Assembly: GCA_037032985.1 (NCBI GenBank)
Contig: JAZBLB010000027.1
Location: 4,295-68,294 of the forward strand
Reading direction: 5' to 3'
From: Bacteroidota bacterium
GTDB lineage: Bacteria > Bacteroidota > Bacteroidia > Sphingobacteriales > Sphingobacteriaceae
Length of the DNA: 64,000 nt
Below the pieces are notes generated by a model that saw only the letters and a program-made list of their open reading frames with translations, was not told the origin of the DNA and did not search any database. A program made the position numbers and the translations under genes. Of this stretch, positions 4,045 to 64,000 are shown piece after piece; position 1 is the first letter of the stretch, and every line of letters starts with the position of its first letter.

Positions 4045-4395
4045 ATGGTTATTACAATATTAAAATCGAAAATACACCGTGTTAAAGTAACACAAGCTGA
4101 ACTTAATTATGTAGGCAGTATTACGATAGATGAAGATTTGATGGATGCGGCTAATATTATCGCAAACGAGAAGGTGCAAATTGTTAATAATAATAATGGT
4201 GCACGCTTCGAAACGTATGTAATTAAAGGTGAACGTGGTACCGGAACCATCTGTTTAAATGGCGCAACGGCACGTTTAGCACAGCTAGGCGATATCCTCA
4301 TCATCATGTCTTACGGAAGCCTGCCTATAGAAGAAGCAAAAAAGTACAGTCCCATACTTGTTTTTCCTGATGATAATAATCACTTACTAAAATAG
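4045..4395 (+). CDS. panD: aspartate 1-decarboxylase
   Basis: KSKIHR, the YVGSITID self-cleavage Gly-Ser site, RFETYVI, NGATAR. Confidence 0.98.
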
Positions 4396-26313: not shown

Positions 26314-28293
26314 ATGTCAGATATTAATTCAAATATACCAGAAGGCGAATTAACCAGTAAATGGACAAAATTTAAGTCTTCTGTGCCGTTGGTTAATCCA
26401 TCGAACAAAAGAACTATTGAAATAATTATTGTTGGTTCAGGTTTAGCCGGCGCATCTGCTGCGGCTACTTTAGCCGAAATGGGTTACAAAGTTAAATGCT
26501 TTTGTTTCCAGGATTCGCCACGTAGAGCACACTCTATTGCTGCTCAAGGTGGAATCAATGCAGCAAAAAATTATCAGAATGATGGCGATAGTACTTATCG
26601 TTTATTCTATGATACCATAAAAGGTGGCGATTACCGTTCCCGCGAAGCCAATGTGCATCGTTTAGCTGAGGTAAGCGTTAACATTATCGATCAATGTGTG
26701 GCTCAGGGTGTTCCGTTAGCACGTGAATACGGTGGCTTGTTAGATAACCGTTCATTCGGTGGTACGCAAGTTCAACGTACCTTCTATGCAGCAGGTCAAA
26801 CTGGTCAGCAATTATTATTAGGTGCCTATTCTGCTTTAGAACGCCAGATTGGTATGGGTAAGGTAGAAATGTACACCCGCCATGAAATGCTTGAAGTGGT
26901 AAAAATCGACGGCAAGGCAAGAGGAATTATCGCACGTAACTTAATTACCGGCGAGATCGAACGTCATTTCGGTCATGCAGTGGTATTGGGAACAGGTGGT
27001 TATGGAAACGTATTCTATCTTTCTACCAATGCGATGGGAAGTAACGTTACGGCAGCCTGGAAAGCACACAAACAAGGAGCTTACTTTGCAAACCCTTGCT
27101 ATACTCAAATTCACCCTACCTGTATCCCTGTTTCGGGTGATCATCAGTCTAAGTTAACCCTGATGTCTGAATCGTTACGTAACGATGGACGGATTTGGGT
27201 GCCTAAAAAGAAAGGTGATGATCGTAAAGCTTCAGAAATCCCTGAAGATGAAAGAGATTACTATTTAGAGCGTCGTTATCCTGCTTTTGGTAATTTGGTT
27301 CCACGTGATGTTGCATCTCGTGCAGCTAAAGAACGTTGTGACGCAGGTTATGGGGTAGGTAATTCTAAGTTAGCAGTTTACCTTGACTTCAAAGCAAATA
27401 CTGAACGTTATGGTAAAATAGAGGCTTCGAAATCGGGCAATCATAATCCAGACAAAGAAACTTGTATGCGTTTGGGTACTGAAGTAGTTAAAGCAAAATA
27501 TGGAAACCTTTTCGATATGTATGCACAAATTACAGGAGAGAATCCTTACGAAACACCAATGCGTATTTATCCTGCGGTTCACTATACAATGGGTGGATTA
27601 TGGGTTGATTATAACCTAATGACAAGTGTTGAAGGTTTGTATTGTACAGGTGAAGCTAATTTTTCAGATCACGGTGCTAACCGTTTAGGTGCATCTGCTT
27701 TAATGCAAGGTTTGGCTGATGGTTACTTCGTTCTACCATACACTATTGGCGCTTATTTATCAAAAGAGATTTCTGTGAAAGCAATTTCTACCGATCACCC
27801 GGCATTTGTTGAGGCGGAAGAAAGAGCAAAAGGTATCTTAAATACTTTGGTAAATATTAAAGGAACAAAGTCTGTTGATCATTTCCACAAACGTTTAGGT
27901 CACATTATGTGGGAGAAATGTGGTATGGCCCGCAGTGAAAAAGGCTTGAATGAGGCTATCGCAGAAATCAGAGCATTACGTGCAGAATTCTGGAGCGATG
28001 TTCGTGTACCAGGATCTGCCGATGAATTAAATACCGAGCTTGAGAAAGCTGGTCGTGTAGCAGATTTTATCGAACTGGGCGAGTTGATGTGTATTGATGC
28101 ATTAAACCGTAATGAGAGTTGTGGTGGTCACTTCCGTGAAGAATATCAAACTGAAGAAGGTGAGGCTTTACGTGACGATGAGAACTATGCATACGTAGCA
28201 GCCTGGGAATTTAAAGAAGGTGTAAAATTTGAACTCCACAAAGAAGAGTTGAAGTTTGAAAACATTAAAGTAGCACAAAGAAGTTATAAATAG
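26314..28293 (+). CDS. sdhA: succinate dehydrogenase/fumarate reductase flavoprotein
   Basis: GSGLAG FAD motif, [10 protein letters not shown] (covalent-FAD His), HYTMGG, HGANRLG. Confidence 0.97.
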
Positions 28294-51542: not shown

Positions 51543-52643
51543 TTAAACGAGTTCCGCTAAAGCTTCTTTGCTGAAACCTTTCAACTCCTCTAGACGGTTG
51601 TTTTTAATTTTTTCCACCCACCTTGCATCAGATAATAACGGGCGGCCCACTGCGATTAAATCGAAATCACCACGATCCATTCTACGTACCAATTCATCTA
51701 ATGAACTCGGCTGAGAACTTTGTCCGGCGAATGCGCCAAAAAAATCACCATCTAAACCAACCGAGCCCACAGAGATCGTTGTCTTACCTGTAATTTTCTT
51801 CGCCCAGCCTGCGAAGTTTAAATCAGACCCCTCGAACTCTGGTTCCCAGAAACGACGTTGAGAACAATGCAAAATATCCACGCCTGCCTCTACCAATGGG
51901 GTTAACCATTGCTCCATTTCCACTTCATTTTTGGCCATTTTAAAGTCATATGCAGCAGGTTTGAATTGCGATAAACGAATAATTAGAGCGAAATCTTCAC
52001 CCACACGTTTACGGACTTCTTTGATTACCTCTACCGCAAAACGGGTACGTTCTGCCAAGGTTTTGCCACCATAAATGTCGGTGCGGGTATTGGTTGCATC
52101 CCAAAAAAACTGATCAATTAAATATTGGTGGGCACCATGAATTTCAACGGTATCATAACCTAATGCTTTTGCATCGGCTGCGGCCTGACCAAAGGCAGCA
52201 ATGGTATCTGCAATCGCAGAATCTGTCATCGGTACGCCGTTTTCAAAACCTGGTCTTTGCAAAGCAGATGGACCTTCGAAAGGAGTACTCGGCAACCAAC
52301 CCGAAGCATGATTGTCCATAACACCCTGATGCCAAATCTGTGGACCCATTTGCCCACCGGCAGCGTGAACATCATTAATCACTTTTTGCCATCCGGCCAA
52401 AGCCTGCTCCCCATAAAAGTGAGGAATATTTGGATCTGCAGAAGACGAGGGGCGGTTAATGACTGTTCCCTCAGATAAAATCAACCCTACCTCGCCTGCA
52501 GCTCTCTTGCTGTAATATTCCGCGACAGCATCAGTAGGGATACCATTTGGAGAGAAAGACCTGGTCATTGGGGCCATTACAATTCTGTTTTTGGTGTTTA
52601 ATGTTTTTAAGTTGAAAGGCTTAAATAAACTATCTGTGTTCAT
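51543..52643 (-). CDS. NADH:flavin oxidoreductase (Old Yellow Enzyme family)
   Basis: 'NRIVMAPMTR', 'QIWHQG', 'EIHGAHQYLIDQF', 'NTRTDIYGG', 'AVGRPLL'. Confidence 0.93.
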   Translation of the reverse strand: MNTDSLFKPFNLKTLNTKNRIVMAPMTRSFSPNGIPTDAVAEYYSKRAAGEVGLILSEGTVINRPSSSADPNIPHFYGEQALAGWQKVINDVHAAGGQMGPQIWHQGVMDNHASGWLPSTPFEGPSALQRPGFENGVPMTDSAIADTIAAFGQAAADAKALGYDTVEIHGAHQYLIDQFFWDATNTRTDIYGGKTLAERTRFAVEVIKEVRKRVGEDFALIIRLSQFKPAAYDFKMAKNEVEMEQWLTPLVEAGVDILHCSQRRFWEPEFEGSDLNFAGWAKKITGKTTISVGSVGLDGDFFGAFAGQSSQPSSLDELVRRMDRGDFDLIAVGRPLLSDARWVEKIKNNRLEELKGFSKEALAELV

Positions 52644-52655
52644 ATATTTCTGGTT

Positions 52656-52958
52656 TTATAATTCTTTACTAATGATTTCAGTCAACTGTTTCAATCCCTC
52701 TTCACTGCGTTTGTAATATGTCCACTGACCCACTCGGGTAGCTGAAACTAACTTCGCACGCTGCAAAATGGAAAGGTATTCAGATATGGTGCTTTGAGAT
52801 AAACCCGCTTTAATTTGAATCTGACCAACACAAACACCCACATTTTCAAAATCGGGATTAAGTTGATCAGGAAAATTTAGAGAAGGGTCTTTAAGCCAGC
52901 TTAAAATTTGCAAACGGGTTTTATTGGATAATGCTTTAAAGATTTCTACTTGATCCAT
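52656..52958 (-). CDS. ArsR/SmtB-family regulator
   Basis: 'FKALSNKTRLQIL', 'LSQSTISEYLSIL', 'RVGQWTYY'; start reassigned to 52958. Confidence 0.9.
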   Translation of the reverse strand: MDQVEIFKALSNKTRLQILSWLKDPSLNFPDQLNPDFENVGVCVGQIQIKAGLSQSTISEYLSILQRAKLVSATRVGQWTYYKRSEEGLKQLTEIISKEL

Positions 52959-52962
52959 GCAG

Positions 52963-52990
52963 CAAATATATATCGGCTTTTCCCGATATA
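52963..52990 (-). promoter_or_regulatory. -7 box overlapped by an 8-6-8 palindromic operator
   Basis: TATATTTG on the minus strand (52963-52970); TATATCGG-CTTTTC-CCGATATA (52969-52990). Confidence 0.65.
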
Positions 52991-53235
52991 CCAATTAATC
53001 TGTTCAAGTTTACATTCGTGTGTAAAACCTATTGGTTGAAAAATAAAAAGATCAGCAAATCAAGCTGGTTTTGAACTAGGGGAGGATAGGATTTCCGAGC
53101 AAAAGCGCCAGAAAAAATAGGTTAGAAAAAGAACGGGGATAAATCATACCGACCTATCCCCGTCATCTAAATTAACGCTCTCATATACATAAACAACCAA
53201 AAGGATGTTTTATTATATGAGGGTGAAAATATTTT

Positions 53236-53823
53236 TTACTTTTTTAAAGCAGGCTTTTTTGTAGCCGCTTTAGGCTTGGCAATTTCTGTTGCTTCAGCTG
53301 GTGTTTCAGTTTTCTTTTTTGCAGGCGCCCTCACTTTTTTTACTGCTAAAATGGGTTCTTCACCGCTTTCCGCCTTTTTCTTGGCTGGTACTTTTGGTTT
53401 TTTTATTTCCGCAGCAGCAGTTTCTCCAGTGTCCGCGTTCTTTTTAACAGGCGCTTTTACTTTCTTGGGTTCAGCAGCTTCTGCTTTGGTTGTCACCTCT
53501 TTTTTTGATGCTGCTTTTGGCTTCTCTAGTTCAATTTCAGGAGTCTTTACAGCTTCTTCTTCCACTTTGGCTGCCTTAGGGGTGTCAGCATTTTGAAGGT
53601 AGTTCGCTAAAACTTGTTTTAGGTAAATCTCGGGCTTTGGCATGTTGATGATAGAGCCCTGTTCTTTATCCTGAGACTGTTTAATGTAAGCAGATTTAAT
53701 CTTTCCCCAATCTTTTGAGTAAAGTCTGATAAACATTTCAACAAATTGTTCATCTGTATATTTTTTAGGCAACCTACCCAGCACTGCCTGAATTTTTTCT
53801 TCTTTTTTATGTAATACCGCCAT
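53236..53823 (-). CDS. hypothetical protein with an N-terminal helical domain and a Lys/Ala/Glu/Pro repeat tail
   Basis: About 75-aa N-terminal domain followed by ~21-aa KKxKAPAKK repeats. Confidence 0.75.
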   Translation of the reverse strand: MAVLHKKEEKIQAVLGRLPKKYTDEQFVEMFIRLYSKDWGKIKSAYIKQSQDKEQGSIINMPKPEIYLKQVLANYLQNADTPKAAKVEEEAVKTPEIELEKPKAASKKEVTTKAEAAEPKKVKAPVKKNADTGETAAAEIKKPKVPAKKKAESGEEPILAVKKVRAPAKKKTETPAEATEIAKPKAATKKPALKK

Positions 53824-53968
53824 CGAATTAATTTTGCGTAAAGATAGCCTAAAAATATGATTATCAGTTTTAACCTTTTTATGGTGAATTATTTACGGTT
53901 AAAACAAGGTTTGCCCTGAAAATGGGCTTAAATATTGTCTCCCGTTTGCAGCACGAAAAGCAACCGGT

Positions 53969-54187
53969 TTACTTTTTCCAACCTTTCTTCATTTTTTTGT
54001 ATGCCTTCTTGCTCACCTTCGATTTTTTCTTTGAGCGCGATTTACCTTTTTTCTTGCGGGCATTAATATTATTTACCAACGAATTCTTTACGCCGAGTTT
54101 ATTCTTCTTCGAACTTCCTTTTTTCTTTTTATCCTTCTTCTTGCCACCTTTTTTCTTAGTTGTTTTGTTCTTTTTCTCTTTTGCCAT
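53969..54187 (-). CDS. very basic 72-aa protein
   Basis: 34 Lys in 72 aa; less degenerate segment 'NSLVNNINARKKKGKSRSKKKSKVSKKAY'; A-rich upstream context. Confidence 0.6.
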   Translation of the reverse strand: MAKEKKNKTTKKKGGKKKDKKKKGSSKKNKLGVKNSLVNNINARKKKGKSRSKKKSKVSKKAYKKMKKGWKK

Positions 54188-54313
54188 GGTATCTATTGGG
54201 TTAGTATATGATCATAACCTAAACGCTGGTGAAATGTTCGCAAGTAAAGGTACCCGTTAGTGATTATCGAATAGAAGGAGAAAAATTAAGACTCAAAACA
54301 TTAGCAACGAAAA

Positions 54314-54351
54314 AAGCTGACCTTCAGCTCTTCAGCTCAAGGTCAGCTTCA
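54314..54351. terminator. hairpin downstream of the SusCD-phosphatase operon (approximate ends)
   Basis: AAGCTGACCTT...AAGGTCAGCTT, an 11-bp stem. Confidence 0.6.
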
Positions 54352-54366
54352 TCAGTATAGGAACAC

Positions 54367-55458
54367 CTACTTAAATACCGTCTTAATGGGATTTCCTACC
54401 TCGTGCCCGGCAGATGCTTTGAAATCGAAGCCCAGTAAGAGAGCGAGGGTTTGTGCTAATTGTTTATGGTAAATTGTTGTCGGGGTCTTTATTTCACCGC
54501 TTGGTGGTGTATCCGGACCTAAAATAGCAAACCAGGTGTTTTCAGCCCCTTTAATGGTTGAGCCGTGGTCACGCCACTCATCCAGCGGAACATCTCCCCG
54601 CCCATGGTCACAAGTAATAAGTAGGGTAGTGGAATCTTTGTAAAAAGGGTCGTTCTGAATGATTTCCCATAAGTTTTGGATGTATCCATCTTCTTGTTTG
54701 GCCCGGTCAAGGTAAAATTTGTAATTACCTGCGTGGGCCATATCATCGGTTTCATCAAAAGCCATGTAAAGCACCCTTGGGTGATGTTGTTTAAGGTATT
54801 CCTTACTAAATTCATAAGTGATGAAATCAAGCCGGGTAGAATCGCCTAAATAATGTGGTACCTGATGCTGGAGTTCGTTCAGGTATTTCAACCTTAAATT
54901 GCTGTCGGCGTTTTTTACATCTGCATAACCTGAGTACACCGGTAAAGCTGACCGACTCGTGTTTAAAATCTGTGGAAAACGCTCCCAGGATGAAAATGCG
55001 ACTACTTTGTCTTCCAATCCTTTTTGTTTATTTAGGAACTCCAGGACGTTCATGTTTGGATTGGCAACGGCATCATTGGTATTCATCCTGACATCTGGAA
55101 AACCAGTAAATATCTCATTATAACCCGGATAAGAAAACCGGTATGGATTGGATAATTCTTCTTTATTTCCTAGATCTCTATTGCCATAGATTTGTCCTTG
55201 TATGGCTAGGGTCTTCCAAAGAAAGGGGGAAAGCATCTGGCGCCTTTCAGTAACAGAAGGGGTCCAATATTTTTTCCGCACTTGGTCTTTATCTTCGGTG
55301 TATTTGGAATTGATAAGTGCAGAATCGGTGCCTCTGAATATTTCCTGCCAGCGTAAGCCGTCGAGGGTAACAATGATTATGTTTTTTGTTTTCCTGGCTT
55401 GGCTAAAGCATAAGGATGCAGCGGTGGTTAATGCTACAACCAGTATTAATTTTTTCAT
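54367..55458 (-). CDS. exported alkaline-phosphatase-superfamily metalloenzyme
   Basis: Signal peptide; 'IVTLDGLRW', 'SYPGY..IFTG', 'ETDDMAH' and 'TCDHGRG' metal-binding motifs. Confidence 0.8.
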   Translation of the reverse strand: MKKLILVVALTTAASLCFSQARKTKNIIIVTLDGLRWQEIFRGTDSALINSKYTEDKDQVRKKYWTPSVTERRQMLSPFLWKTLAIQGQIYGNRDLGNKEELSNPYRFSYPGYNEIFTGFPDVRMNTNDAVANPNMNVLEFLNKQKGLEDKVVAFSSWERFPQILNTSRSALPVYSGYADVKNADSNLRLKYLNELQHQVPHYLGDSTRLDFITYEFSKEYLKQHHPRVLYMAFDETDDMAHAGNYKFYLDRAKQEDGYIQNLWEIIQNDPFYKDSTTLLITCDHGRGDVPLDEWRDHGSTIKGAENTWFAILGPDTPPSGEIKTPTTIYHKQLAQTLALLLGFDFKASAGHEVGNPIKTVFK

Positions 55459-55550
55459 ATTTCAGCTAAATAAATAGGGTTCTTGATGAGCTGTCTTCAT
55501 CTCTTTAAAAAGGAATGAACAATGCCATGACGACACCTTCTTAACACGGG

Positions 55551-57149
55551 TTATTTTAAAATCCACATGATGCCGTTAATGTCATCATTGCCATTAAACT
55601 GACTGGCAAGTGCCCCTTGGTAATTTTTTGCATTGGCGGTACGCTCAGCAGTTGGATATTTGAACCGCTGGGCAATTCTGTTTCCATTGCCTGTTCCAGG
55701 TCCGGTGGTAAATGCCGGAATTCCAGTTCTGCGGTAGCTGAAGTAAGACTCTAAGCCGGAATGCCTGAATAGGGCCAGGTACTTCTGTTGCAGAATTTGC
55801 GTAATTCCCGTTGTCCCCGCCGTATACTTAACCGTGGGCTGGTTATAATAGCTATTGAAATCGATCGGAATAACAAAAGTATCATAGTTGGCGAGATTGG
55901 TGACATCCTGAGACCCCGGGCGGTAGAAATAAGCGGTGTAATTTCCATTTTCCGGAAGGCCGTAGGAGCCCATAGAGGCTTTAATGCCGGCCATGTAATA
56001 AGTTTCAGCATTTCCGGTAGCCCACCCCCTATTAAGTCCTTCGGCAATGTTTAGCATCAGCTCAGCATAACCAATCTGAATACTTGGCTCACCAGTGTAA
56101 GTCGAGTAAAAGCGCTTACGGTTGATAAAAGAGAACTTCTGCAAACCTGCATTATTATACATCATCCCTAAATCTAAACCGGCATCTGCACCAATAAAAG
56201 ATGCGAAATCTGTTGCGCTTTGCTTGACATTATCAACTAAATCTCTGGAAGGTTCGGCAGTGGCATAAACCCTTGGATCCTTCAGGCGCGTAAGCAGACC
56301 AATATAAGTTGCAGAGGAGTTTTTTCGGGATCCGCTTTGTCCGAAATTGTTCGGGTTTTGAGGGTAGTAGTTATTTGGCGCCACAAAAGTATATTGAAGG
56401 TTATCCGCTGGGCTTTCCATTAAAGGGTATTTTGCTGGATTGGCTAAGATGCTCGCAAACTGGGTAGCCACATTTAAGTCCGGATCTGTTACTTTCTTGC
56501 TCAATTGGAGCAACAGTCTGATCTTTAGGGTATTTACTGTTTTTTGCCATTTACGCAAGTCATTATTGAAATAGATATCGTTGCTCAACGTTGCCCCAAC
56601 ACCTGAACCAAAATTAGCCGGGTTTTTAATTAATTGATCCAGATCGCTATTGGCACTTTCAAGTAAGGCCAGGCATTGTTGCATAACCGTTTTTTGAGAG
56701 TCGTAGACTGGCTCGAGTGTGTCCAGGCCTTTTAAGGCCTGTGTCATTGGGATATCGCCCATTTCTAAACTCATTTTACTAAAAAAGTAGGCTCTGAAGA
56801 ATTTGCCCAGCGCCTCATATGGATTAATCGCAGCACCACCAGTCGCACCGGCACGTTTTTCCATTTCCACGACGTTTTTTAGCACCGTATAGTAGTCATC
56901 GCCAGCGCCAAGATCATAGCGATTATTGCCATAATAATCGTAGTTATTGAGGTAATACTGACTATAGGTTTCTTTTGAGCCATCCGGCAGATCTGCCAGA
57001 TTAACTAACACACCATTAAACAGAAGGGCTGCAGATACAGCATTTGGCTTATTGGTATTTTCAGCGAGCTCTTCAAAACTCTTTTTACAGCCGGTTGCCA
57101 GGATAATCACCACCAATGGCAACAGGGATATAGAAACTAATTTTTTCAT
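55551..57149 (-). CDS. SusD/RagB-family lipoprotein
   Basis: Lipobox ATGC, 'GDIPMTQAL', 'KWQKTVNTLKIRLLL', 'YAELMLNIAE', 'RRTGIP'; directly downstream of SusC. Confidence 0.92.
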   Translation of the reverse strand: MKKLVSISLLPLVVIILATGCKKSFEELAENTNKPNAVSAALLFNGVLVNLADLPDGSKETYSQYYLNNYDYYGNNRYDLGAGDDYYTVLKNVVEMEKRAGATGGAAINPYEALGKFFRAYFFSKMSLEMGDIPMTQALKGLDTLEPVYDSQKTVMQQCLALLESANSDLDQLIKNPANFGSGVGATLSNDIYFNNDLRKWQKTVNTLKIRLLLQLSKKVTDPDLNVATQFASILANPAKYPLMESPADNLQYTFVAPNNYYPQNPNNFGQSGSRKNSSATYIGLLTRLKDPRVYATAEPSRDLVDNVKQSATDFASFIGADAGLDLGMMYNNAGLQKFSFINRKRFYSTYTGEPSIQIGYAELMLNIAEGLNRGWATGNAETYYMAGIKASMGSYGLPENGNYTAYFYRPGSQDVTNLANYDTFVIPIDFNSYYNQPTVKYTAGTTGITQILQQKYLALFRHSGLESYFSYRRTGIPAFTTGPGTGNGNRIAQRFKYPTAERTANAKNYQGALASQFNGNDDINGIMWILK

Positions 57150-57169
57150 AATTTTCAGTGTATTCAAGA

Positions 57170-60100
57170 TTAGAAGGAAACGTTGAGGTTAATACCAAAA
57201 CTGCGAACTGTTGGCGATTGTAAACCGGTTGACGGTGTTGCATAATTATATTGATCCAGATCTACATCTTTGAAGCGTTTATCTTTATAGAAGTAAAGCA
57301 GGTTCCGGCCGTAAACTGACAGAGACGCCTTTCTGATGAAAGTTTTTTCTAGTAGTTCTTTAGAGAATTCATATCCCAGGGTAACCTCACGAAGTTTAGT
57401 AAAGGTTTTACTCATCAGGTTGGCCTCATCCACATTGTAATACTTACTTACATAATCCTGTACAAAGGCAACTTGGGTATTCGGTGCGTATTGCAAGGCT
57501 GAATAATTAAGGATTGCTCCGGTGTTCGAATCATAATTTATCGCTGCACCGTTGGAAATCACAACCCCCTCCCCAACGAAGCTCCCATTATAACCGGCCT
57601 TTCCAAAGTTCGACCAGTCCTGGTATCTTGCTGCACCTAAGGCGCCTTCTGCGGTTTGTGCATTAGCCCCCCCACGCATGGTTTTGTTGTGCATGTAATC
57701 GACGATTACCCCACCAACATTGCCGTCAAACTGTATACCTAGGCTCAGGTTTTTATATTGGAATTTATTGTAAATACTCCAGTTAAACCTGCCGATTTCA
57801 TTGCCTAGAAATTGTGCTGTTGGATTAATTAATGGCTTTCCTGCGGCATCATTGATGATTTTCCCTTCTGGTGTTTTTACAAACGCAGTTCCATATAATT
57901 TATCGGTTCGATCACCAGCCTTAAAAAAGGTCGCGTAAATGCTCTGCCCTTCAGGAAGCTCTTTATACACCTCTTTGTAGGTAGAAATATTCGTTAAAAT
58001 GTTCCAGCTGAAGCCATCAGCTTGTTTGAAAACGTCTCCGCTTAGCGATCCCTCATAACCCGTTTTTTTTGTTTTCAGTGCATTCAGGTATTCAATGGTG
58101 TAGCCTGTAGCTGTTGAAATGGCGTTTGGCAAAATCCTTGGACCATCAATATATTGGAAAGCCGTTCCACTGAAAGTTAACCTGTTTTTTAAAAATCTGA
58201 TGTCAAAGCCCTCTTCATAATTTACACGAGTAGATGTTTTGATCCCGTTCTGGTATAAATAATCAGATGCATAACCTGCAGTTTGACTATTGTAGGGTTT
58301 GCTGGTTGCATAAGATGTATTTAATGAATAATCAGGGCCGTTGTATGGTGAAGTGTAAGTGGTGCCATATCCCAATGGATTATTAAACAAAGAAGGACCA
58401 GTGCTCCCGCCAAGTGCGGTAATGGAGCTGAATGGGGCAGGGCCTATGGTTGTCGACGTGGCATCTGAGCGAATATTGGAATAAGATGCCCTTACTTTTA
58501 GAAAGCTAATCAACTCAGGCATCTTAATATAATCCGATAAGACTGAAGCGATGGATAAGCTCGGATAGAAATAGGTGGTAGGCACCTGGAATGCAGAAGA
58601 TTTATCCAGACGACCGGTGCTGGAAATGGTGGCGTATTTGCCTAAACCCAAATCCAATGAATAGTATGCACTTAGTACCCGCATTCCCGAATTGAAGCTG
58701 GTCGATTGGATTGGATTCTTTGAATTGCTGAAGGCGTAAACTTCCGGAACATTCAGGTAATCTGTAGAAGTCCAGCTGGAGTTGTAGGACATGTTACGCA
58801 TGTTTCCACCAATTAAACCTGAGATATTGAAGAACTTTTTAATGGTATAGTCATAATTCAACATCAGTTCTGTGTTGTTGTCGAACAGGTCACGGCGGTC
58901 TTCACGGTAATCTCCCTCATTTCCTTCCCGTCCGTAAGGATGAGCAGAAAACGGCATTTTTTCGGTGCGCAGAATGTTGTAAGTATCAATCTGAGAGCGG
59001 ATAGTTGCATTCAGATTTGTGTTAATTTTATAATTGGCCAGAAGGTAACCAGTCGTATTGGTTTTGCGGTGCCCTCTAGTCCATTCTTTCACCATAAACC
59101 AGGGATTATGATAACGGGTATATTCTGCAAACTGTTGCTGAATCCCTTCTTTTCCGGGCTGCCAGATGGCTTTAATATCCGGTGCGTTCACATCCCAATC
59201 CGCTCCGGTCCAAATGGCGAGGTTATAAATCAAACTGTTTGGTCCATATTGAACATCCGGAAAATTATCAGTGTTTTGACGGTTGAAATTAACATTACCT
59301 TCAAATTTCCATCGTGGACTTGGATTGAAGGAAGCATACATATTCACATTTGCAATATCAAGGTATTGTTCAGGAATATAGCTGTTCTGATGTTGCTGCG
59401 AGGCTGAAAACCGAATAGTATGGTTCTCCCCATTGGAGGTTAAGGCAATATTGTTATTGGTTTGAAAGCCAGTACGCAGAAAATTAGTTAAGTTGTTGGC
59501 TCCACGTGCGGTATAGGGGGTTGGCTGACGAACACCATTAATAATCGGACTATCGTATTGCGCAATCAACTGTCCGTTGAAGAAGGGTCCCCATACATCA
59601 TAATCTGCATCTACACCACCAGGTGCACCGCCTTTACCATCAACAAACTGGTAAAAAGTATTTTCACCCGCCCCGTAAGCTTTCTGTACACGTGGAAAAG
59701 CTAAAAAGCCCTTGTTGATTACTGTGCTACTATTGACATCAATAGTCAAACCCTTTTTGTTTTTGTTCCCTTTTTTTGTGGTGATTAAAATGGCGCCGAA
59801 AGAGGCCCTGTTACCATAGAGTGCAGCAGCCGCCGGACCTTTTAAGACGGTATAACTCTCAATATCATCTGGACTGATATTGTAGGTGTCAGTGTTGATT
59901 GGAAAGCCATCTACTACATATAGTGAAATGGTATTTCCTCGGATGGCTACATTGGGTGAGCCCAGCAATTCAGCTGAAGGACCAACGGATAATCCGGCTA
60001 CTTTACCGATTAAACCCGTCACCGGATTGGGATCGCGGGCAAGTGTCAGGTCTTCACCCTGGACTGTAGAAACCGCATAACCGATTTTACGGTTGTCTTT

Positions 60101-60451
60101 TTTTACGCCCAGGGCGGTTACAACCACCTCGTTAAGGGTTTGATCGTTTCCTTTTAAGGTAATGGTAATTGGATTGGTAGTGTCTCCCACCGTAACCTCT
60201 GTAGGGGTAAAGCCTAGAAACTGAAATTGCAGGATCTGCCCAGGGTTGGCGTTTAGGATAAAGCGACCATAATTATCCGTAGTGGTTCCGGCCTTGGAAT
60301 CCTTGATCATTACACTTACACCGGGTAGCGGCTGGTTAGCCTCATCATTCACGATGCCGGAGATTTTGGCTTGTGCCAGTAAGATTAAAGGAGAAAGGAA
60401 GCACATCGCCAGGAGTACAAGCCTTTTTAAATGAGGGTAAAAAGCATCCAT
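57170..60451 (-). CDS. SusC/RagA-family TonB-dependent transporter
   Basis: 'PLPGVSV', 'LNEVVVTALG', 'DIESYTVLKGPAAAALYGNRA', C-terminal 'GINLNVSF'; start reassigned to the ATG at 60451. Confidence 0.95.
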   Translation of the reverse strand: MDAFYPHLKRLVLLAMCFLSPLILLAQAKISGIVNDEANQPLPGVSVMIKDSKAGTTTDNYGRFILNANPGQILQFQFLGFTPTEVTVGDTTNPITITLKGNDQTLNEVVVTALGVKKDNRKIGYAVSTVQGEDLTLARDPNPVTGLIGKVAGLSVGPSAELLGSPNVAIRGNTISLYVVDGFPINTDTYNISPDDIESYTVLKGPAAAALYGNRASFGAILITTKKGNKNKKGLTIDVNSSTVINKGFLAFPRVQKAYGAGENTFYQFVDGKGGAPGGVDADYDVWGPFFNGQLIAQYDSPIINGVRQPTPYTARGANNLTNFLRTGFQTNNNIALTSNGENHTIRFSASQQHQNSYIPEQYLDIANVNMYASFNPSPRWKFEGNVNFNRQNTDNFPDVQYGPNSLIYNLAIWTGADWDVNAPDIKAIWQPGKEGIQQQFAEYTRYHNPWFMVKEWTRGHRKTNTTGYLLANYKINTNLNATIRSQIDTYNILRTEKMPFSAHPYGREGNEGDYREDRRDLFDNNTELMLNYDYTIKKFFNISGLIGGNMRNMSYNSSWTSTDYLNVPEVYAFSNSKNPIQSTSFNSGMRVLSAYYSLDLGLGKYATISSTGRLDKSSAFQVPTTYFYPSLSIASVLSDYIKMPELISFLKVRASYSNIRSDATSTTIGPAPFSSITALGGSTGPSLFNNPLGYGTTYTSPYNGPDYSLNTSYATSKPYNSQTAGYASDYLYQNGIKTSTRVNYEEGFDIRFLKNRLTFSGTAFQYIDGPRILPNAISTATGYTIEYLNALKTKKTGYEGSLSGDVFKQADGFSWNILTNISTYKEVYKELPEGQSIYATFFKAGDRTDKLYGTAFVKTPEGKIINDAAGKPLINPTAQFLGNEIGRFNWSIYNKFQYKNLSLGIQFDGNVGGVIVDYMHNKTMRGGANAQTAEGALGAARYQDWSNFGKAGYNGSFVGEGVVISNGAAINYDSNTGAILNYSALQYAPNTQVAFVQDYVSKYYNVDEANLMSKTFTKLREVTLGYEFSKELLEKTFIRKASLSVYGRNLLYFYKDKRFKDVDLDQYNYATPSTGLQSPTVRSFGINLNVSF

Positions 60452-60631
60452 AATTGCCAAATAATTTTGTTTAAGATTACTTGGCAATACTAAACTTTGT
60501 TTATTATTTGTAAACTTATTTTACGTTAAGGATAGCTTAAACATTTGTTCGCTTATTGTTAACAGACCAGGTTTTTGGTAATGAAATCAATACAATTCTG
60601 TTAAGATGAATTAACATTATGGCAATACTAT

Positions 60632-61210
60632 TTAGTCCTGATGCTGTAGATGCTGAAGGGCCAAATCCTTTAGCTCTTGTAAGTTATCTATTGGAATGTC
60701 AATTAATTTTGCTTCATCGTCCCAGAAACGCATGCGGAGAATAATTTGCAAATCAGGATCCTGCTCAAACAACAGGGCTTCGGTCGCATCCATTGGTCCG
60801 CCCTGGAAACCTAACGTTATCCTGCTCGCGGGAGACAGCTTTTCATAATATTGGGAATCTTTATATGTGAGGTAACGTTTGGCAGTTACATGTCCACTTA
60901 CCAGCTTAGCCAGACGGGCTGAGAAACCTCGTTCCAGTAAATAATCTGCACCGATTTGTTCATGATCGATATTGCCCATGCCATCCATACTTCCCGCCTC
61001 ATCCGTGGCTGCACATAAGTGTCCAATATCATGGAAAAAAGCAGCAAGCACCACCTCGTTATCATAGCCTTCCAATTGGGCCAGTTTTGCGGCCTGCGAC
61101 ATGTGCTCAAGCTGCGAAACGGGTTCGCCAATGTAATCTTCATTTCCATGCTTCGTGTATAAAGCAAAAACTTCGTTAACCACGACCTGAGCAGTTGATG
61201 ATTTTTTCAT
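60632..61210 (-). CDS. PhnZ-like HD-domain phosphonate oxygenase
   Basis: 'GEPVSQLEHMSQAA', 'FHDIGH', 'DHEQIGA', 'HVTAKRYL', 'LSPAS..TL..QGGPM', 'WDDEAK'. Confidence 0.85.
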   Translation of the reverse strand: MKKSSTAQVVVNEVFALYTKHGNEDYIGEPVSQLEHMSQAAKLAQLEGYDNEVVLAAFFHDIGHLCAATDEAGSMDGMGNIDHEQIGADYLLERGFSARLAKLVSGHVTAKRYLTYKDSQYYEKLSPASRITLGFQGGPMDATEALLFEQDPDLQIILRMRFWDDEAKLIDIPIDNLQELKDLALQHLQHQD

Positions 61211-61356
61211 GTTGCTATATTATAACCCGAATAAAAAGTTAATGTTATTTAGGAATTAAGCTTTTGTATTTCTCGAGCTAATCTTTCGAAATAATCTAAA
61301 AACTTTGTCTGCATTGAATTAATTATCTAATTTTCGCTCCAAACAAAATCAGATCA

Positions 61357-61935
61357 ATGGAAGATGACGTGCTGATTCAAATCAGTAACCGGATTAAAGA
61401 CAGGCGACGTGAAAAAAATATTACTGTGCAGGAACTAGCCATCAGGGCTAATGTGAGTAAGGGATTAATTTCTCAGATTGAAAATAGCCGTACAGTACCG
61501 TCTTTAATTGTGCTCATCGATATTATAAAAGCACTGGAGATTGATTTAAATGTATTTTTCAAAGACATTAAATATAACGAAAGGAATTTTCCATTGCTCA
61601 TCCGCAGAAAAGAGGAGTATGATCATTTTGAAAAAGAAGATGCTGCGGGTTTCAGTTACCACCGTATATTCACGCAAACAATTAAACAATCAACTGTAGA
61701 TGTTGTGATCCTTGAACTTGAGCCTAATGCACAAAGACCACAAATCCAGACCGAGGCTTTCGAATATAAATACATTATAACTGGTAGTGTTGACTATCAC
61801 TTTGGTGATGATGTCTACCAGTTGAAACAGGGTGATTCAATGCTATTCGACGGCCGGATGCCACATACACCAAAAAATCCAGGTAAAACGAAAGCCAGTA
61901 TGCTTGTCATTTATTTTTTTGAAGAAAACCGCTAA
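61357..61935 (+). CDS. XRE-family HTH plus cupin transcriptional regulator
   Basis: 'TVQELAIRANVSKGLISQIENSRTVPS' and cupin 'GDSMLFDGRMPH'. Confidence 0.92.
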   Translation: MEDDVLIQISNRIKDRRREKNITVQELAIRANVSKGLISQIENSRTVPSLIVLIDIIKALEIDLNVFFKDIKYNERNFPLLIRRKEEYDHFEKEDAAGFSYHRIFTQTIKQSTVDVVILELEPNAQRPQIQTEAFEYKYIITGSVDYHFGDDVYQLKQGDSMLFDGRMPHTPKNPGKTKASMLVIYFFEENR

Positions 61936-62013
61936 ACTTAAATGTATCTTAACATTAAGGTAGTTTTGTAATAATAAACTAAGTTTAATTTTGCTAAACA
62001 TTAAATTGTTAGC

Positions 62014-62697
62014 ATGTCCATTAAACTTGTAGTATTCGATATGGCCGGTACCACGGTCAGAGATGAAAATAAAGTAACGCAAACTTTCAGAAATGCTTTA
62101 CAGCATCACGGGTATGATGTTCCGGAGTATATCATTAATCCTTTAATGGGTTATAAAAAGATCGTGGCCATTACCAAAATGCTTCATTTTTATGAGCCTA
62201 ACCAGTTAAAAATCACCTCAGATCTCATTTCCAAGATCCATGAAAGTTTTGTTCGCCTGATGATTGATTATTATCAAAAGGCAGATTTTCTGGAAGCCCT
62301 TCCGAATGCAGAGTCGACCATGTTAGCACTCAAAAAATCAGGAATCCAAGTTGGAATAAATACGGGTTTTTCCCGCGATATAGCCGAAGTGATCATTGGT
62401 AGATTAGCCTGGAGGGAAAAAGGGCTGTTTGACTTTTTGGTCTGCTCGGATGAAGTAGCCGAAGGCCGACCTAATCCTGGAATGATTAATCGTTTAAGGC
62501 AACTTGGTGGAATCGCTGAGGCAGATGAAGTGGCAAAAGTTGGCGATACCGAAGTCGATATTCGTGAAGGACAAAATGCAGGATGTAAGTATGCAATTGC
62601 GGTCACTACCGGTGCTTTTTCCAGAGCTGAACTAGAGCCTTATCATCCCACGCATATCATTGATGACATTGCTGAAGTGCTCGACATCGTTTTATAG
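62014..62697 (+). CDS. phosphonatase-like HAD hydrolase (PhnX-like)
   Basis: 'VFDMAGTT' motif I, 'LMGYKK' cap Lys, 'NTGF', 'GRPNP', 'KVGDTEVDIREG'. Confidence 0.85.
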   Translation: MSIKLVVFDMAGTTVRDENKVTQTFRNALQHHGYDVPEYIINPLMGYKKIVAITKMLHFYEPNQLKITSDLISKIHESFVRLMIDYYQKADFLEALPNAESTMLALKKSGIQVGINTGFSRDIAEVIIGRLAWREKGLFDFLVCSDEVAEGRPNPGMINRLRQLGGIAEADEVAKVGDTEVDIREGQNAGCKYAIAVTTGAFSRAELEPYHPTHIIDDIAEVLDIVL

Positions 62698-62706
62698 ATA
62701 GCTGCG

Positions 62707-64000
62707 ATGAAACTGGTAGAAACAATCCGCTCAAAAACGGCTAAATGGCCTTATGCTATTACCGCTATAGTCTCGGCTTTGGCGGCCTTCGGCGCATATT
62801 CATCTATGTATGCTTTTCGTAAAGCCTTCGCCGCGGGCACCTATTCAGGCCAGGTGTACCTTCATGTAGATTTTAAGGTTTGGCTTGTTATTTTTCAGGT
62901 GGTTGGCTATACGCTGAGTAAATTTTATGGTATCCGCTTCATTGCAGAACTAAACGGGAAAAGCAGGGGGCTGACAATTTTGGTATTGGTGGGCATTTCC
63001 TGGCTCGCCTTGCTGGGCTTTGCGCTCGTTCCAGCGCCATTTAATATGGTCTTTCTTTTTATAAATGGTTTTCCGCTTGGTTTAATCTGGGGCTTGGTAT
63101 TTGGATACCTCGAAGGACGGCGTTCTACTGAATTTATGGCTGCGGTGTTATCTATTAGCCTGATTTTTGGTTCAGGTTTTGTGAAAACAGTCGGGCAAAC
63201 GCTTCTTTATACTTACCGGGTAAATGAATATATGATGCCTTTTCTCACTGGTGCCCTGTTTGTATTTCCCATCCTGTTTTTTGTGATTGTGCTCGAACTG
63301 ATGCCCGAACCGACCGAGAAGGATAAACTGCTGCGGACCGAACGAAAACCCATGAGTGCACTAGAAAGGAAACAATTCATCACCCGTTTCCTGCCAGGAA
63401 TTCTCTTAACGATAGTGATTTATGTATTGCTCACCGTGATGCGGGATGTCCGGGATAATTTTGAAGTGGAAATCTGGAATAGTCTCGGCATTACCGATAA
63501 GAACATTTATGCAAAGATTGATAGTCGGATCTCAATTGTCGTACTCATTGCAATGAGTACACTTTTTCTAATTAAGCGGAATCTAAAGGCTTTCGGCATC
63601 ATTCACTTTTTGATTATCGGAGGATGTATACTCATAGGCGCATCTACCTGGCTTTTCAGTTTACACCTCATTGGCCCGGTTACCTGGATGACCATGGCTG
63701 GATTAGGTCTTTATCTTGGATATGTGCCCTACAACGCCATCTTTTTTGAGCGAATGATTGCTACCTTTCATTATAAAAGTAATGTGGGTTTTGTGATGTA
63801 TATCGCAGATTCCCTTGGTTACCTGGCCAGTGTAAGTGTATTATTGATCAAAGAATTTGGGAAGCCGAATATCAGTTGGGGGAATTTTTTTAAAGAAGGT
63901 GTAGTTCTGGTTGCAGTCATCGGCAGCATTTTCGGGGCTTTGTCCTTCATCTATTTTTTCCTTTCTGCTCGAAAAATCAGCATTAGTAAGAAATCACCAT
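62707..64000 (+). CDS. DUF5690-family multi-TM (MFS-like) protein; stop codon lies outside the window
   Basis: Not in the ORF track. Manual translation from the ATG at 62707 gives MKLVETIRSK...YSSMYAFRKAF...GYTLSKFYGIRFIAE...YLEGRRSTE; I saw no in-frame stop before the window end. Confidence 0.8.
   Translation, partial: MKLVETIRSKTAKWPYAITAIVSALAAFGAYSSMYAFRKAFAAGTYSGQVYLHVDFKVWLVIFQVVGYTLSKFYGIRFIAELNGKSRGLTILVLVGISWLALLGFALVPAPFNMVFLFINGFPLGLIWGLVFGYLEGRRSTEFMAAVLSISLIFGSGFVKTVGQTLLYTYRVNEYMMPFLTGALFVFPILFFVIVLELMPEPTEKDKLLRTERKPMSALERKQFITRFLPGILLTIVIYVLLTVMRDVRDNFEVEIWNSLGITDKNIYAKIDSRISIVVLIAMSTLFLIKRNLKAFGIIHFLIIGGCILIGASTWLFSLHLIGPVTWMTMAGLGLYLGYVPYNAIFFERMIATFHYKSNVGFVMYIADSLGYLASVSVLLIKEFGKPNISWGNFFKEGVVLVAVIGSIFGALSFIYFFLSARKISISKKSP

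Follow-up and report, generated by a model that had tools for sequence, protein, structure and literature searches.

PusCD are SusCD-like complexes that are induced by low phosphate in Flavobacterium johnsoniae (Lidbury et al. 2020, PMC8115612), and growth on phosphatidylinositol and on glycerophosphoinositol requires PusCD1/2 (Connolly et al. 2026 preprint, 10.64898/2026.09.03.749221). Both sources already state that pairs of the pusCD type are found together with genes for (amino)phosphonate degradation (PMC8115612; 10.64898/2026.09.03.749221). PbfD enzymes oxidise the N-methyl form of 2-aminoethylphosphonate (AEP) to phosphonoacetaldehyde, as PbfD2 also does with plain AEP; together, PbfD2 and PhnX constitute a validated PhnW-less pathway for AEP and N-methyl-AEP (Zangelmi et al. 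2023, PMC10590968). AepP is a GlpT-related permease for 2AEP (Murphy et al. 2021, PMC8316502). Here, we describe a locus that joins a PusCD/PUS-type system to a PbfD–PhnX(–PhnZ) cluster. It lies at the right-hand end of a window of 64,000 nucleotides, by which we mean the whole stretch of DNA analysed: positions 4295–68294 of contig JAZBLB010000027.1 (C27) in a genome of 5.19 Mb and 66 contigs (GCA_037032985.1), the contig extending for another 7.6 kb. Judged by its genes and their conservation, this Pedobacter locus is likely to be dedicated to the use of aminophosphonates, with the architecture of a polysaccharide utilisation locus but with organophosphonates as its target. The headline idea is not new, being in print as a genomic remark. 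Our literature search found no paper that combines PhnZ with SusD, and none that mentions DUF5690 in the context of a phosphonate locus.

Genes were called from the open reading frame (ORF) list and from Pfam and NCBIfam scans of the window proteins, and the seven gene placements of an earlier sequence-only reading of this DNA were reproduced. They fall into two divergent arms. On the minus strand are the genes for a PhnZ-like oxygenase, SusC, SusD and an exported enzyme of the alkaline phosphatase (AP) superfamily. On the plus strand are the genes for a regulator with an XRE-type helix-turn-helix (HTH) and a cupin domain, a PhnX-like hydrolase of the haloacid dehalogenase (HAD) superfamily and a DUF5690 membrane protein. 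The sequence-only reading had pointed to the next gene beyond the window as a possible flavin adenine dinucleotide (FAD)-dependent oxidoreductase, and such a gene is present there as the eighth of the locus. It had also reported no carbohydrate-active enzyme (CAZyme) and no ATP-binding cassette (ABC) transporter of the PhnCDE kind, and the Pfam and NCBIfam scans find no CAZyme or ABC transporter gene in the locus or its flanks.

The SusC/RagA TonB-dependent transporter (ORF 57170–60487, minus strand, likely ATG at 60451) scores 442.8 bits against TIGR04056, for which the cut-off is 368, and contains the TIGR04057 signature together with CarboxypepD_reg and Plug domains. The SusD-like lipoprotein (ORF 55551–57167, minus strand, likely ATG at 57149) carries an LATGC lipobox, and its only Pfam matches are PF12771 (SusD-like_2; 7.5e-62) and PF12741. 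While a classical polysaccharide utilisation locus is defined by a CAZy enzyme next to susCD, here the SusC/SusD-type pair is accompanied by an exported phosphoesterase and DUF5690 in place of CAZymes, as is characteristic of PUS. The likeness to PUS/PusCD thus comprises a SusC/SusD pair with exported phosphoesterases and inner-membrane organophosphorus transporters, the lack of CAZymes, and occurrence in plant-associated Bacteroidota. There are also clear differences. The substrates of PusCD1/2 are glycerophosphoinositol or inositol phosphate, and low phosphate is the inducing signal, whereas the present locus encodes an XRE-cupin regulator of its own, with a separate operator, along with enzymes that cleave carbon–phosphorus (C–P) bonds, DUF5690 and an uncharacterised AP enzyme. 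The presence of a local regulator of this type suggests induction by substrate rather than by phosphate depletion. In addition, PusD1/2 (Fjoh_4168 and Fjoh_3250) carry PF07980 and PF14322 (Table 1, PMC8115612), in contrast to the SusD-like_2 type of the locus protein, which therefore appears to belong to a different branch, although a comparison of Pfam listings in place of a tree is a weak test.

The association of susCD with phn genes was assessed among 79 loci that contain SusD orthologues (43–89% identity) from Pedobacter, Mucilaginibacter, Hymenobacter and Chitinophagaceae. Flanking sequence of 10 kb was included wherever the contigs were long enough, and the loci were searched with all eight locus proteins; 59 are informative, having at least 3 kb on either side of susCD. 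One or more phn genes occur beside the SusD orthologue in 53 of the 59. The complete eight-gene divergent layout is kept in Pedobacter and Mucilaginibacter. Hymenobacter keeps the order phnZ–susC–susD–AP, with genes for a more distant XRE protein, a PhnX-like protein (TIGR03351) and a TIGR03364 protein approximately 3 kb downstream. In Hydrotalea flava and a related metagenome-assembled genome, the genes form one co-directional array, XRE–SusC–SusD–(GDPD)–AP–(PhnZ)–PhnX–DUF5690–FAD. Because the linkage outlasts rearrangement of gene order across four families, it provides strong comparative evidence that susCD and the phn genes form a functional unit. The XRE, PhnX-like and FAD proteins of Hymenobacter are about 30% identical to those of the window, and the palindrome described below is absent there.

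The two arms share a conserved operator-like palindrome, TAAAC-N3-GTTTA. A perfect copy, TAAACTTTGTTTA, lies proximally in the susC promoter at 60491–60503, and the motif scan places a second copy with one mismatch 20 bp from it, at 60511–60523. Another perfect copy, TAAACTAAGTTTA, precedes the phnX-like gene at 61975–61987. The regulator gene (61357–61935, plus strand) encodes an HTH_3 domain at residues 13–66 and a Cupin_2 domain at residues 119–186. Relatives were divided by regulator type, defined as an XRE protein at least 55% identical to that of the window, which gave 41 loci with the matching type and 25 with another or no such regulator. All 41 of the former have a perfect palindrome within 150 bp upstream of susC, while it is found in none of the 25 others. 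Ahead of the gene that opens the second arm, the palindrome is perfect in 35 of the 41 and within one mismatch in all of them; where the phnX-like gene is missing, it precedes DUF5690 instead. Paired palindromes at 20-bp spacing recur in many relatives.

The placement of these palindromes relative to the promoters is also conserved. The Bacteroidota -7 element is TAnnTTTG. The susC promoter has a -7-like box, TAGTATTG, at 60485–60492 on the minus strand, which is the commonest form at susC among relatives, and the promoter of the phnX-like gene has a perfect -7 box, TAATTTTG, at 61986–61993. In both promoters, the TAnn(A/T)TTG box starts with the TA that ends the palindrome, and this overlap is conserved. 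A scan for sigma-70 promoters and terminators gave nothing above shuffled sequences, its model being unsuited to Bacteroidota promoters. At position 27911 of another contig (C29), a palindrome (TAAACAATGTTTA) has an A/T-only spacer like the sites of the locus and a similar half-site 12 bp downstream; it may mark another member of the regulon.

PuuR, the putrescine-responsive repressor of Escherichia coli that combines an XRE-HTH with a cupin domain, offers a precedent for an amine-sensing repressor with operators that overlap promoters. The locus regulator has the same two-domain architecture and finds its best NCBIfam match in PuuR, but its score of 35.7 bits is far under the equivalog cut-off of 211. 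The simplest reading of these arrangements is a repressor that would occlude the -7 box of both arms; the XRE-cupin protein encoded alongside is the evident candidate for it, a step that we infer. The two arms are probably co-regulated.

The plus-strand arm encodes the components of a predicted AEP pathway. The PhnX-like HAD hydrolase (62014–62697, plus strand; TIGR03351, 183.8 bits) aligns to the phosphonoacetaldehyde hydrolases 2IOF/1RQL at 1e-14. In the DxAGT motif of these enzymes, the Asp is the nucleophile and the Ala replaces the second Asp of the HAD motif. Both are kept here (D9 and A11; FDMAGTT against FDWAGTT in 2IOF/1RQL), as is the Schiff-base Lys, K48 being the equivalent of K53 (MGYKKI against MGLLKI). 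The protein is thus predicted to be a phosphonoacetaldehyde hydrolase. The PbfD-type FAD oxidoreductase gene (window-equivalent 64017–65147, plus-strand arm, outside the window) overlaps the end of the DUF5690 gene by 4 bases, and its product scores 424.9 bits against TIGR03364, well above the cut-off of 285.1. Genome-wide searches for PhnJ (C–P lyase) and PhnW found neither. The genomic context of PbfD2-type enzymes is therefore present, with a TIGR03364 match above the cut-off, a PhnX-like gene in the same operon and a genome that lacks PhnW, an absence which fits the pathway of PbfD2 and PhnX. The locus resembles that described pathway (PMC10590968) in placing a TIGR03364 oxidase next to a PhnX-type hydrolase without PhnW. 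It differs in that the pair is accompanied by genes for a SusCD importer, for an exported esterase and for DUF5690 and PhnZ, and in that its hydrolase is of the TIGR03351 form and lacks the segment that bears His56.

The PhnZ-like diiron HD oxygenase gene (60632–61210, minus strand) is a single copy in the genome. Its product matches PhnZ (4MLM) at 1.1e-44 and TIGR03276 at 203.3 bits. The residues that align to the iron ligands of 4MLM are conserved (H36, H60, D61, H83, H107 and D164), as are those that align to the amine-binding Tyr and Glu (Y26 and E29); we take the roles of these residues, six as iron ligands and the Tyr and Glu for the substrate amine, to be those given in the PhnZ structure paper. 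Its predicted reaction is the oxidation of (R)-1-hydroxy-2-aminoethylphosphonate (HAEP), which would yield glycine and phosphate. Since the genome lacks PhnW and C–P lyase, this enzyme and the PbfD-type and PhnX-like pair are its sole recognisable phosphonate routes. The oxygenase shares the iron ligands and the amine-binding Tyr and Glu with the PhnY*/PhnZ pathway (4MLM/4MLN). The difference is that the locus is without PhnY* and that relatives swap PhnZ for PbfA, an HAEP lyase. Three SusD-centred loci have a class III aminotransferase-like gene and no phnZ (L065, L068 and L074); the one that was scanned, from L074, is PbfA, the (R)-HAEP ammonia-lyase (NF049939, 685.8 bits against a cut-off of 525). 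A PbfA-like gene without phnZ is also found in seven DUF5690-centred loci (L109, L112–L114, L116, L119 and L121). PhnZ and PbfA never occur together in the 99 SusD-centred and DUF5690-centred loci. That two unrelated enzymes for HAEP alternate in a conserved context argues that HAEP is a genuine target.

Transport across the inner membrane may be provided by the DUF5690 protein. Its gene (62707–64020, plus strand) is cut by the window end at 64000, and the 437-residue product matches PF18943 at 526 bits. The AlphaFold2 model, with a predicted local distance difference test (pLDDT) value of 87.3, has the 12-helix fold of the major facilitator superfamily (MFS), and its top Foldseek neighbours in the Protein Data Bank (PDB) are the glucose-6-phosphate:phosphate antiporters G6PT1/SLC37A4 and SLC37A2 (TM-scores of 0.60–0.72, 19% identity). 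R38, at the end of transmembrane helix 1, and R246, in helix 7, are invariant; R45 and R269, the paired phosphate-binding Arg residues of GlpT, could not be aligned with them. In Hymenobacter loci, DUF5690 is absent and an MFS gene of the GlpT/PgtP/UhpC family stands just upstream of phnZ in 12 loci. This non-orthologous replacement by a member of the organophosphate:phosphate antiporter (OPA) family supports the transport role assigned to DUF5690.

DUF5690 thus resembles AepP and the other OPA-family transporters (GlpT, UhpT and G6PT) in its modelled 12-helix MFS fold, which is nearest to G6PT/SLC37, and in that a true OPA-family MFS takes the equivalent place in Hymenobacter. It differs in being a separate family by sequence, and one that is partly found away from phn genes. 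An identification of DUF5690 with AepP itself was rejected, as the sequence matches neither MFS_1 nor the OPA family. Among 301 Bacteroidota genomes that were sampled, 22 contain the family; of 20 such loci that were fetched, 13 adjoin phn genes, six of them also with recognisable SusCD. A homologue search with DUF5690 gave close relatives only, and the family also matches in the control, Caulobacter vibrioides. Paralogues with 43–47% identity lie away from the phn genes searched (L107, L108, L110, L119, L120, L122 and L125), one of them from another Pedobacter genome; the L119 locus holds a PbfA-like gene. In four annotated loci, these paralogues adjoin unrelated genes, among them those for an M20 peptidase, an alpha/beta hydrolase, a PfkB kinase and an ABC ATPase. 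The DUF5690 family may not be limited to phosphonates.

The exported AP-superfamily enzyme (54367–55458, minus strand; 363 residues) begins with a signal peptide and matches the type I phosphodiesterase family PF01663 marginally, at 23.4 bits against a cut-off of 23. Seven residues are invariant among 54 orthologues: D33, S109 (in FSYPGY), D238, H242, D284, H285 and H298. A single-sequence search of the PDB found nothing significant, and a profile search gave marginal matches in which the D-x3-H and DH motifs aligned weakly with iPGM and the Xac NPP. The AlphaFold2 model has a pLDDT of 92.5. The names given to orthologues in databases are generic and contradictory (‘alkaline phosphatase family’, ‘phosphoglyceromutase’ and ‘LTA synthase’). 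Judged from its conserved residues, the enzyme represents an uncharacterised clade with a predicted NPP/iPGM-like two-metal site and a Ser nucleophile, and it is a candidate periplasmic phosphonate-monoester or phosphodiester hydrolase. Of the 59 informative loci, 44 contain its gene, and L124 and similar loci have it with phnZ and DUF5690 where tblastn finds no SusCD nearby.

In relatives, further phosphoesterases with signal peptides are added beside SusCD. Seventeen loci have a GDPD, 16 have another enzyme of the NPP type in addition to the AP-clade position, and eight have one of the PLC/AcpA type, which is often fused to a beta-propeller. There is no CAZyme among the accessory genes in the annotated neighbours of relatives. 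The second NPP-type esterase is found in Hymenobacter (L029, L042, L043, L046, L047, L051, L054, L055, L059, L062 and others); some Hymenobacter loci add a PLC-type esterase, and L029 alone has a phytase-like lipoprotein. This exported esterase complement suggests that an ester rather than a free acid crosses the outer membrane. A classical GDPD should be unable to free the head group of glycero-AEP, because its alcohol side is a P–C bond. AEP would be freed solely by cleavage of the glycerol-O–P bond, which an NPP-like phosphonate-monoester hydrolase could perform, and this would explain why the AP clade travels with phn genes.

Together, these components can be arranged into a conditional route. 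The SusD-like lipoprotein and SusC would bind a small aminophosphonate compound and bring it across the outer membrane. The compound would most likely be an ester, whether the head group of a phosphonolipid after deacylation (glycero-AEP, for instance) or a related ester of AEP, N-methyl-AEP or 1-hydroxy-AEP; we hold an ester to be slightly better favoured than the free acid. The exported AP enzyme might then cut the P–O–C ester in the periplasm to give the free aminophosphonate, a step to which we give about an even chance. DUF5690 would probably move the free compound inwards across the inner membrane. In the cytoplasm, C–P cleavage would very probably follow two branches: the PbfD-type oxidase would convert AEP or N-methyl-AEP to phosphonoacetaldehyde, from which the PhnX-like hydrolase would give acetaldehyde and phosphate, and PhnZ would convert (R)-1-hydroxy-AEP to glycine and phosphate. 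It is somewhat favoured, too, that the XRE-cupin protein represses both arms through the TAAAC-N3-GTTTA palindromes, and that an amine or phosphonate bound by its cupin domain lifts the repression.

As a whole, the interpretation offered by the sequence-only reading, a SusCD-coupled phosphonate utilisation locus, is supported by these comparisons. Its single locus of two divergent arms agrees with the conserved shared operator. Its two C–P cleavage chemistries are borne out by catalytic residues that are intact in the alignments, and its proposed DUF5690 transporter by a model that resembles organophosphate antiporters of the MFS. The reading had staked its interpretation on synteny of the susCD arm with phn genes in other genomes, and such synteny extends to at least four bacterial families. 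New here are the conserved arrangement of operators and promoters by which both arms are linked to the XRE-cupin regulator, the alternation of PhnZ and PbfA, the G6PT-like fold of DUF5690 together with its replacement by an OPA-family MFS, and the delineation of the AP clade.

A number of observations weigh against an aminophosphonate locus of this kind. The PhnZ-like enzyme falls under the TIGR03276 cut-off of 214.6, while its Hymenobacter orthologue, at 228.9 bits, is above it. The PhnX-like hydrolase is similarly under the curated cut-offs (for TIGR03351, 183.8 against 218.9; for TIGR01422, 110 against 220). The ‘dhv’ segment that bears His56 in PhnX is a gap in its alignment, and with this segment missing, its mechanism or substrate may be slightly unlike that of the canonical phosphonatase. 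There is no PhnY* in the locus, and the genome has two weak PhyH matches elsewhere, one of which was scanned and has no NCBIfam match; HAEP would thus presumably have to reach the enzyme pre-formed, from outside the cell. The DUF5690 sequence has no match to Pfam MFS_1 (PF07690), to NCBIfam models such as TIGR00881 or to transporters in the PDB, and seven of the 20 Bacteroidota loci with DUF5690 are in unrelated contexts. For the AP enzyme, Foldseek recovers the generic AP-superfamily core only (sulfatases, YejM, LtaS and the Xanthomonas NPP; TM-scores of 0.5–0.58). The AP gene is missing from roughly a quarter of otherwise complete loci and is thus not obligatory. In addition, phnZ lies upstream of the susC operator.

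Two further points of this kind concern specificity and expression. The genome contains 23 perfect palindromes against 14.8 expected, so that the motif is not specific alone, and it was dropped as a genome-wide probe for the regulon. Because the palindrome is not rare in the genome, the evidence lies in its conserved position and not in its sequence. The sequencing runs that contain the locus are of DNA or undetermined type, together with one doubtful run of RNA type (13% of words). Finally, orthologous SusCD without phn neighbours occurs in P. cryoconitis, Thermoflavifilum and Chitinophaga, the last with GDPD only. In P. cryoconitis, an integrase directly follows susD, a two-component system lies upstream, and the susC operator is retained. 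These features suggest a rearrangement that split the regulon, and the P. cryoconitis loci were for this reason rejected as a refutation of the linkage. P. cryoconitis and its relatives (L022, L026, L027 and L040) have susCD with the palindrome and no phn genes within 10 kb; in L022, the integrase is a tyrosine integrase whose gene comes immediately after susD. Thermoflavifilum retains SusCD–AP next to an amino-acid permease, and Chitinophaga retains SusCD–GDPD behind a FecR anti-sigma gene.

The rival explanation that fares best, though we consider it unlikely, is that SusCD imports free AEP, N-methyl-AEP and HAEP at low concentration, while the AP enzyme is a general phosphatase or diesterase of the periplasm that scavenges phosphate in parallel and has no part in the phosphonate route. 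Small solutes can enter through TonB-dependent transporters, the AP enzyme is modelled as a generic AP fold only, and it is absent from approximately 15 of the 59 informative loci, which keep SusCD and mostly phn genes as well. Nevertheless, other exported esterases (GDPD, the second NPP type and the PLC type) adjoin SusCD with or without the AP enzyme, and the AP gene accompanies phnZ and DUF5690 even where no SusCD was found nearby (L124). SusD lids, moreover, usually bind ligands bigger than a zwitterion of 125 Da, and a glycerophosphodiester is the substrate of PusCD1, which has been characterised (10.64898/2026.09.03.749221).

A second rival, to which we attach still less weight, holds that SusCD and the esterase serve ordinary phosphodiesters such as glycerophosphoethanolamine, and that the phn genes are a separate phosphorus-scavenging module that shares the regulator and the neighbourhood. 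AEP esters are, as a matter of general chemistry, nearly isosteric with phosphoethanolamine esters, and the Chitinophaga loci with SusCD and GDPD but no phn genes, like those of Thermoflavifilum with SusCD and AP only, are what it would lead one to expect. Against this stands the presence of phn genes beside this SusCD clade in 53 of 59 loci and four families, even where the whole has been rearranged into a single operon. The common operator, furthermore, binds both arms to one signal, and the local regulator is an XRE-cupin protein of substrate type, not a Pho two-component system. That the adjacency of susCD and phn is merely fortuitous, with no functional link, is very unlikely to the point of being negligible, because synteny is conserved from 89% down to 43% SusD identity despite shuffled gene order, and the same conserved operator is found in both promoters. 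A joint aminophosphonate utilisation locus is, on balance, the reading that we prefer.

The FAD gene is followed by a 91-residue ORF without annotation and then by genes for an acyltransferase in convergent orientation, for a LytTR regulator and for a HipA toxin–antitoxin pair; because these come after it, the FAD gene is taken to end the second arm. The HipA toxin is split (L001:16841–18150, equivalent to C27:73840–75149, past the window) into an N-terminal ORF of 109 residues and a C-terminal kinase ORF of 327 residues, which overlap by 4 bases in a split HipA-type toxin–antitoxin arrangement. The left flank encodes GreA, HIT, pirin and PAP2 proteins, an ArsR/old-yellow-enzyme pair and a Lys-rich protein of 195 residues. 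The last of these (53236–53823, minus strand; rich in Lys, Ala and Pro) has no family match and is separated from the AP gene by a 540-bp gap, whose sole ORF (53922–54260, plus strand) would encode a Phe-rich protein of low complexity and is unlikely to be a gene. A scan of 52500–64000 against Rfam gave no matches. The most similar SusD orthologues (88–89% identity) are from Pedobacter isolates such as CFBP9032, N23S346, P. psychrotolerans, AJM and R20-19, and near-identical DNA occurs in sequencing runs of isolates and in plant, seed, root and air metagenomes.

Phosphonates, chiefly AEP-type head groups of lipids and glycans, are a sizeable pool of organic phosphorus in soil and on plants. 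Bacteroidota are prominent mobilisers of phosphorus in the rhizosphere, and how they obtain phosphonates is the gap that this locus addresses. It provides a complete and testable parts list in a culturable genus: an outer-membrane importer, a periplasmic esterase, a permease, two C–P routes, a regulator and an operator. More tentatively, and with the odds against all of it holding at once, the AP protein may found a family of periplasmic phosphonate-monoester hydrolases, and DUF5690 a new family of MFS importers for aminophosphonates, possibly in exchange for phosphate. In that case, no outer-membrane lipoprotein with specificity for phosphonate esters would precede the SusD protein, and an XRE-cupin repressor that senses aminophosphonates would control the three of them. 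No dedicated enzyme is known to us for the release of AEP-type head groups from their esters with glycerol, ceramide or sugars, and this is the role that the AP enzyme would fill. If the locus works as proposed, functions would be gained for three uncharacterised families, namely the AP clade, DUF5690 and the XRE-cupin regulator, and the PusCD concept would be extended from phosphate esters to phosphonates.

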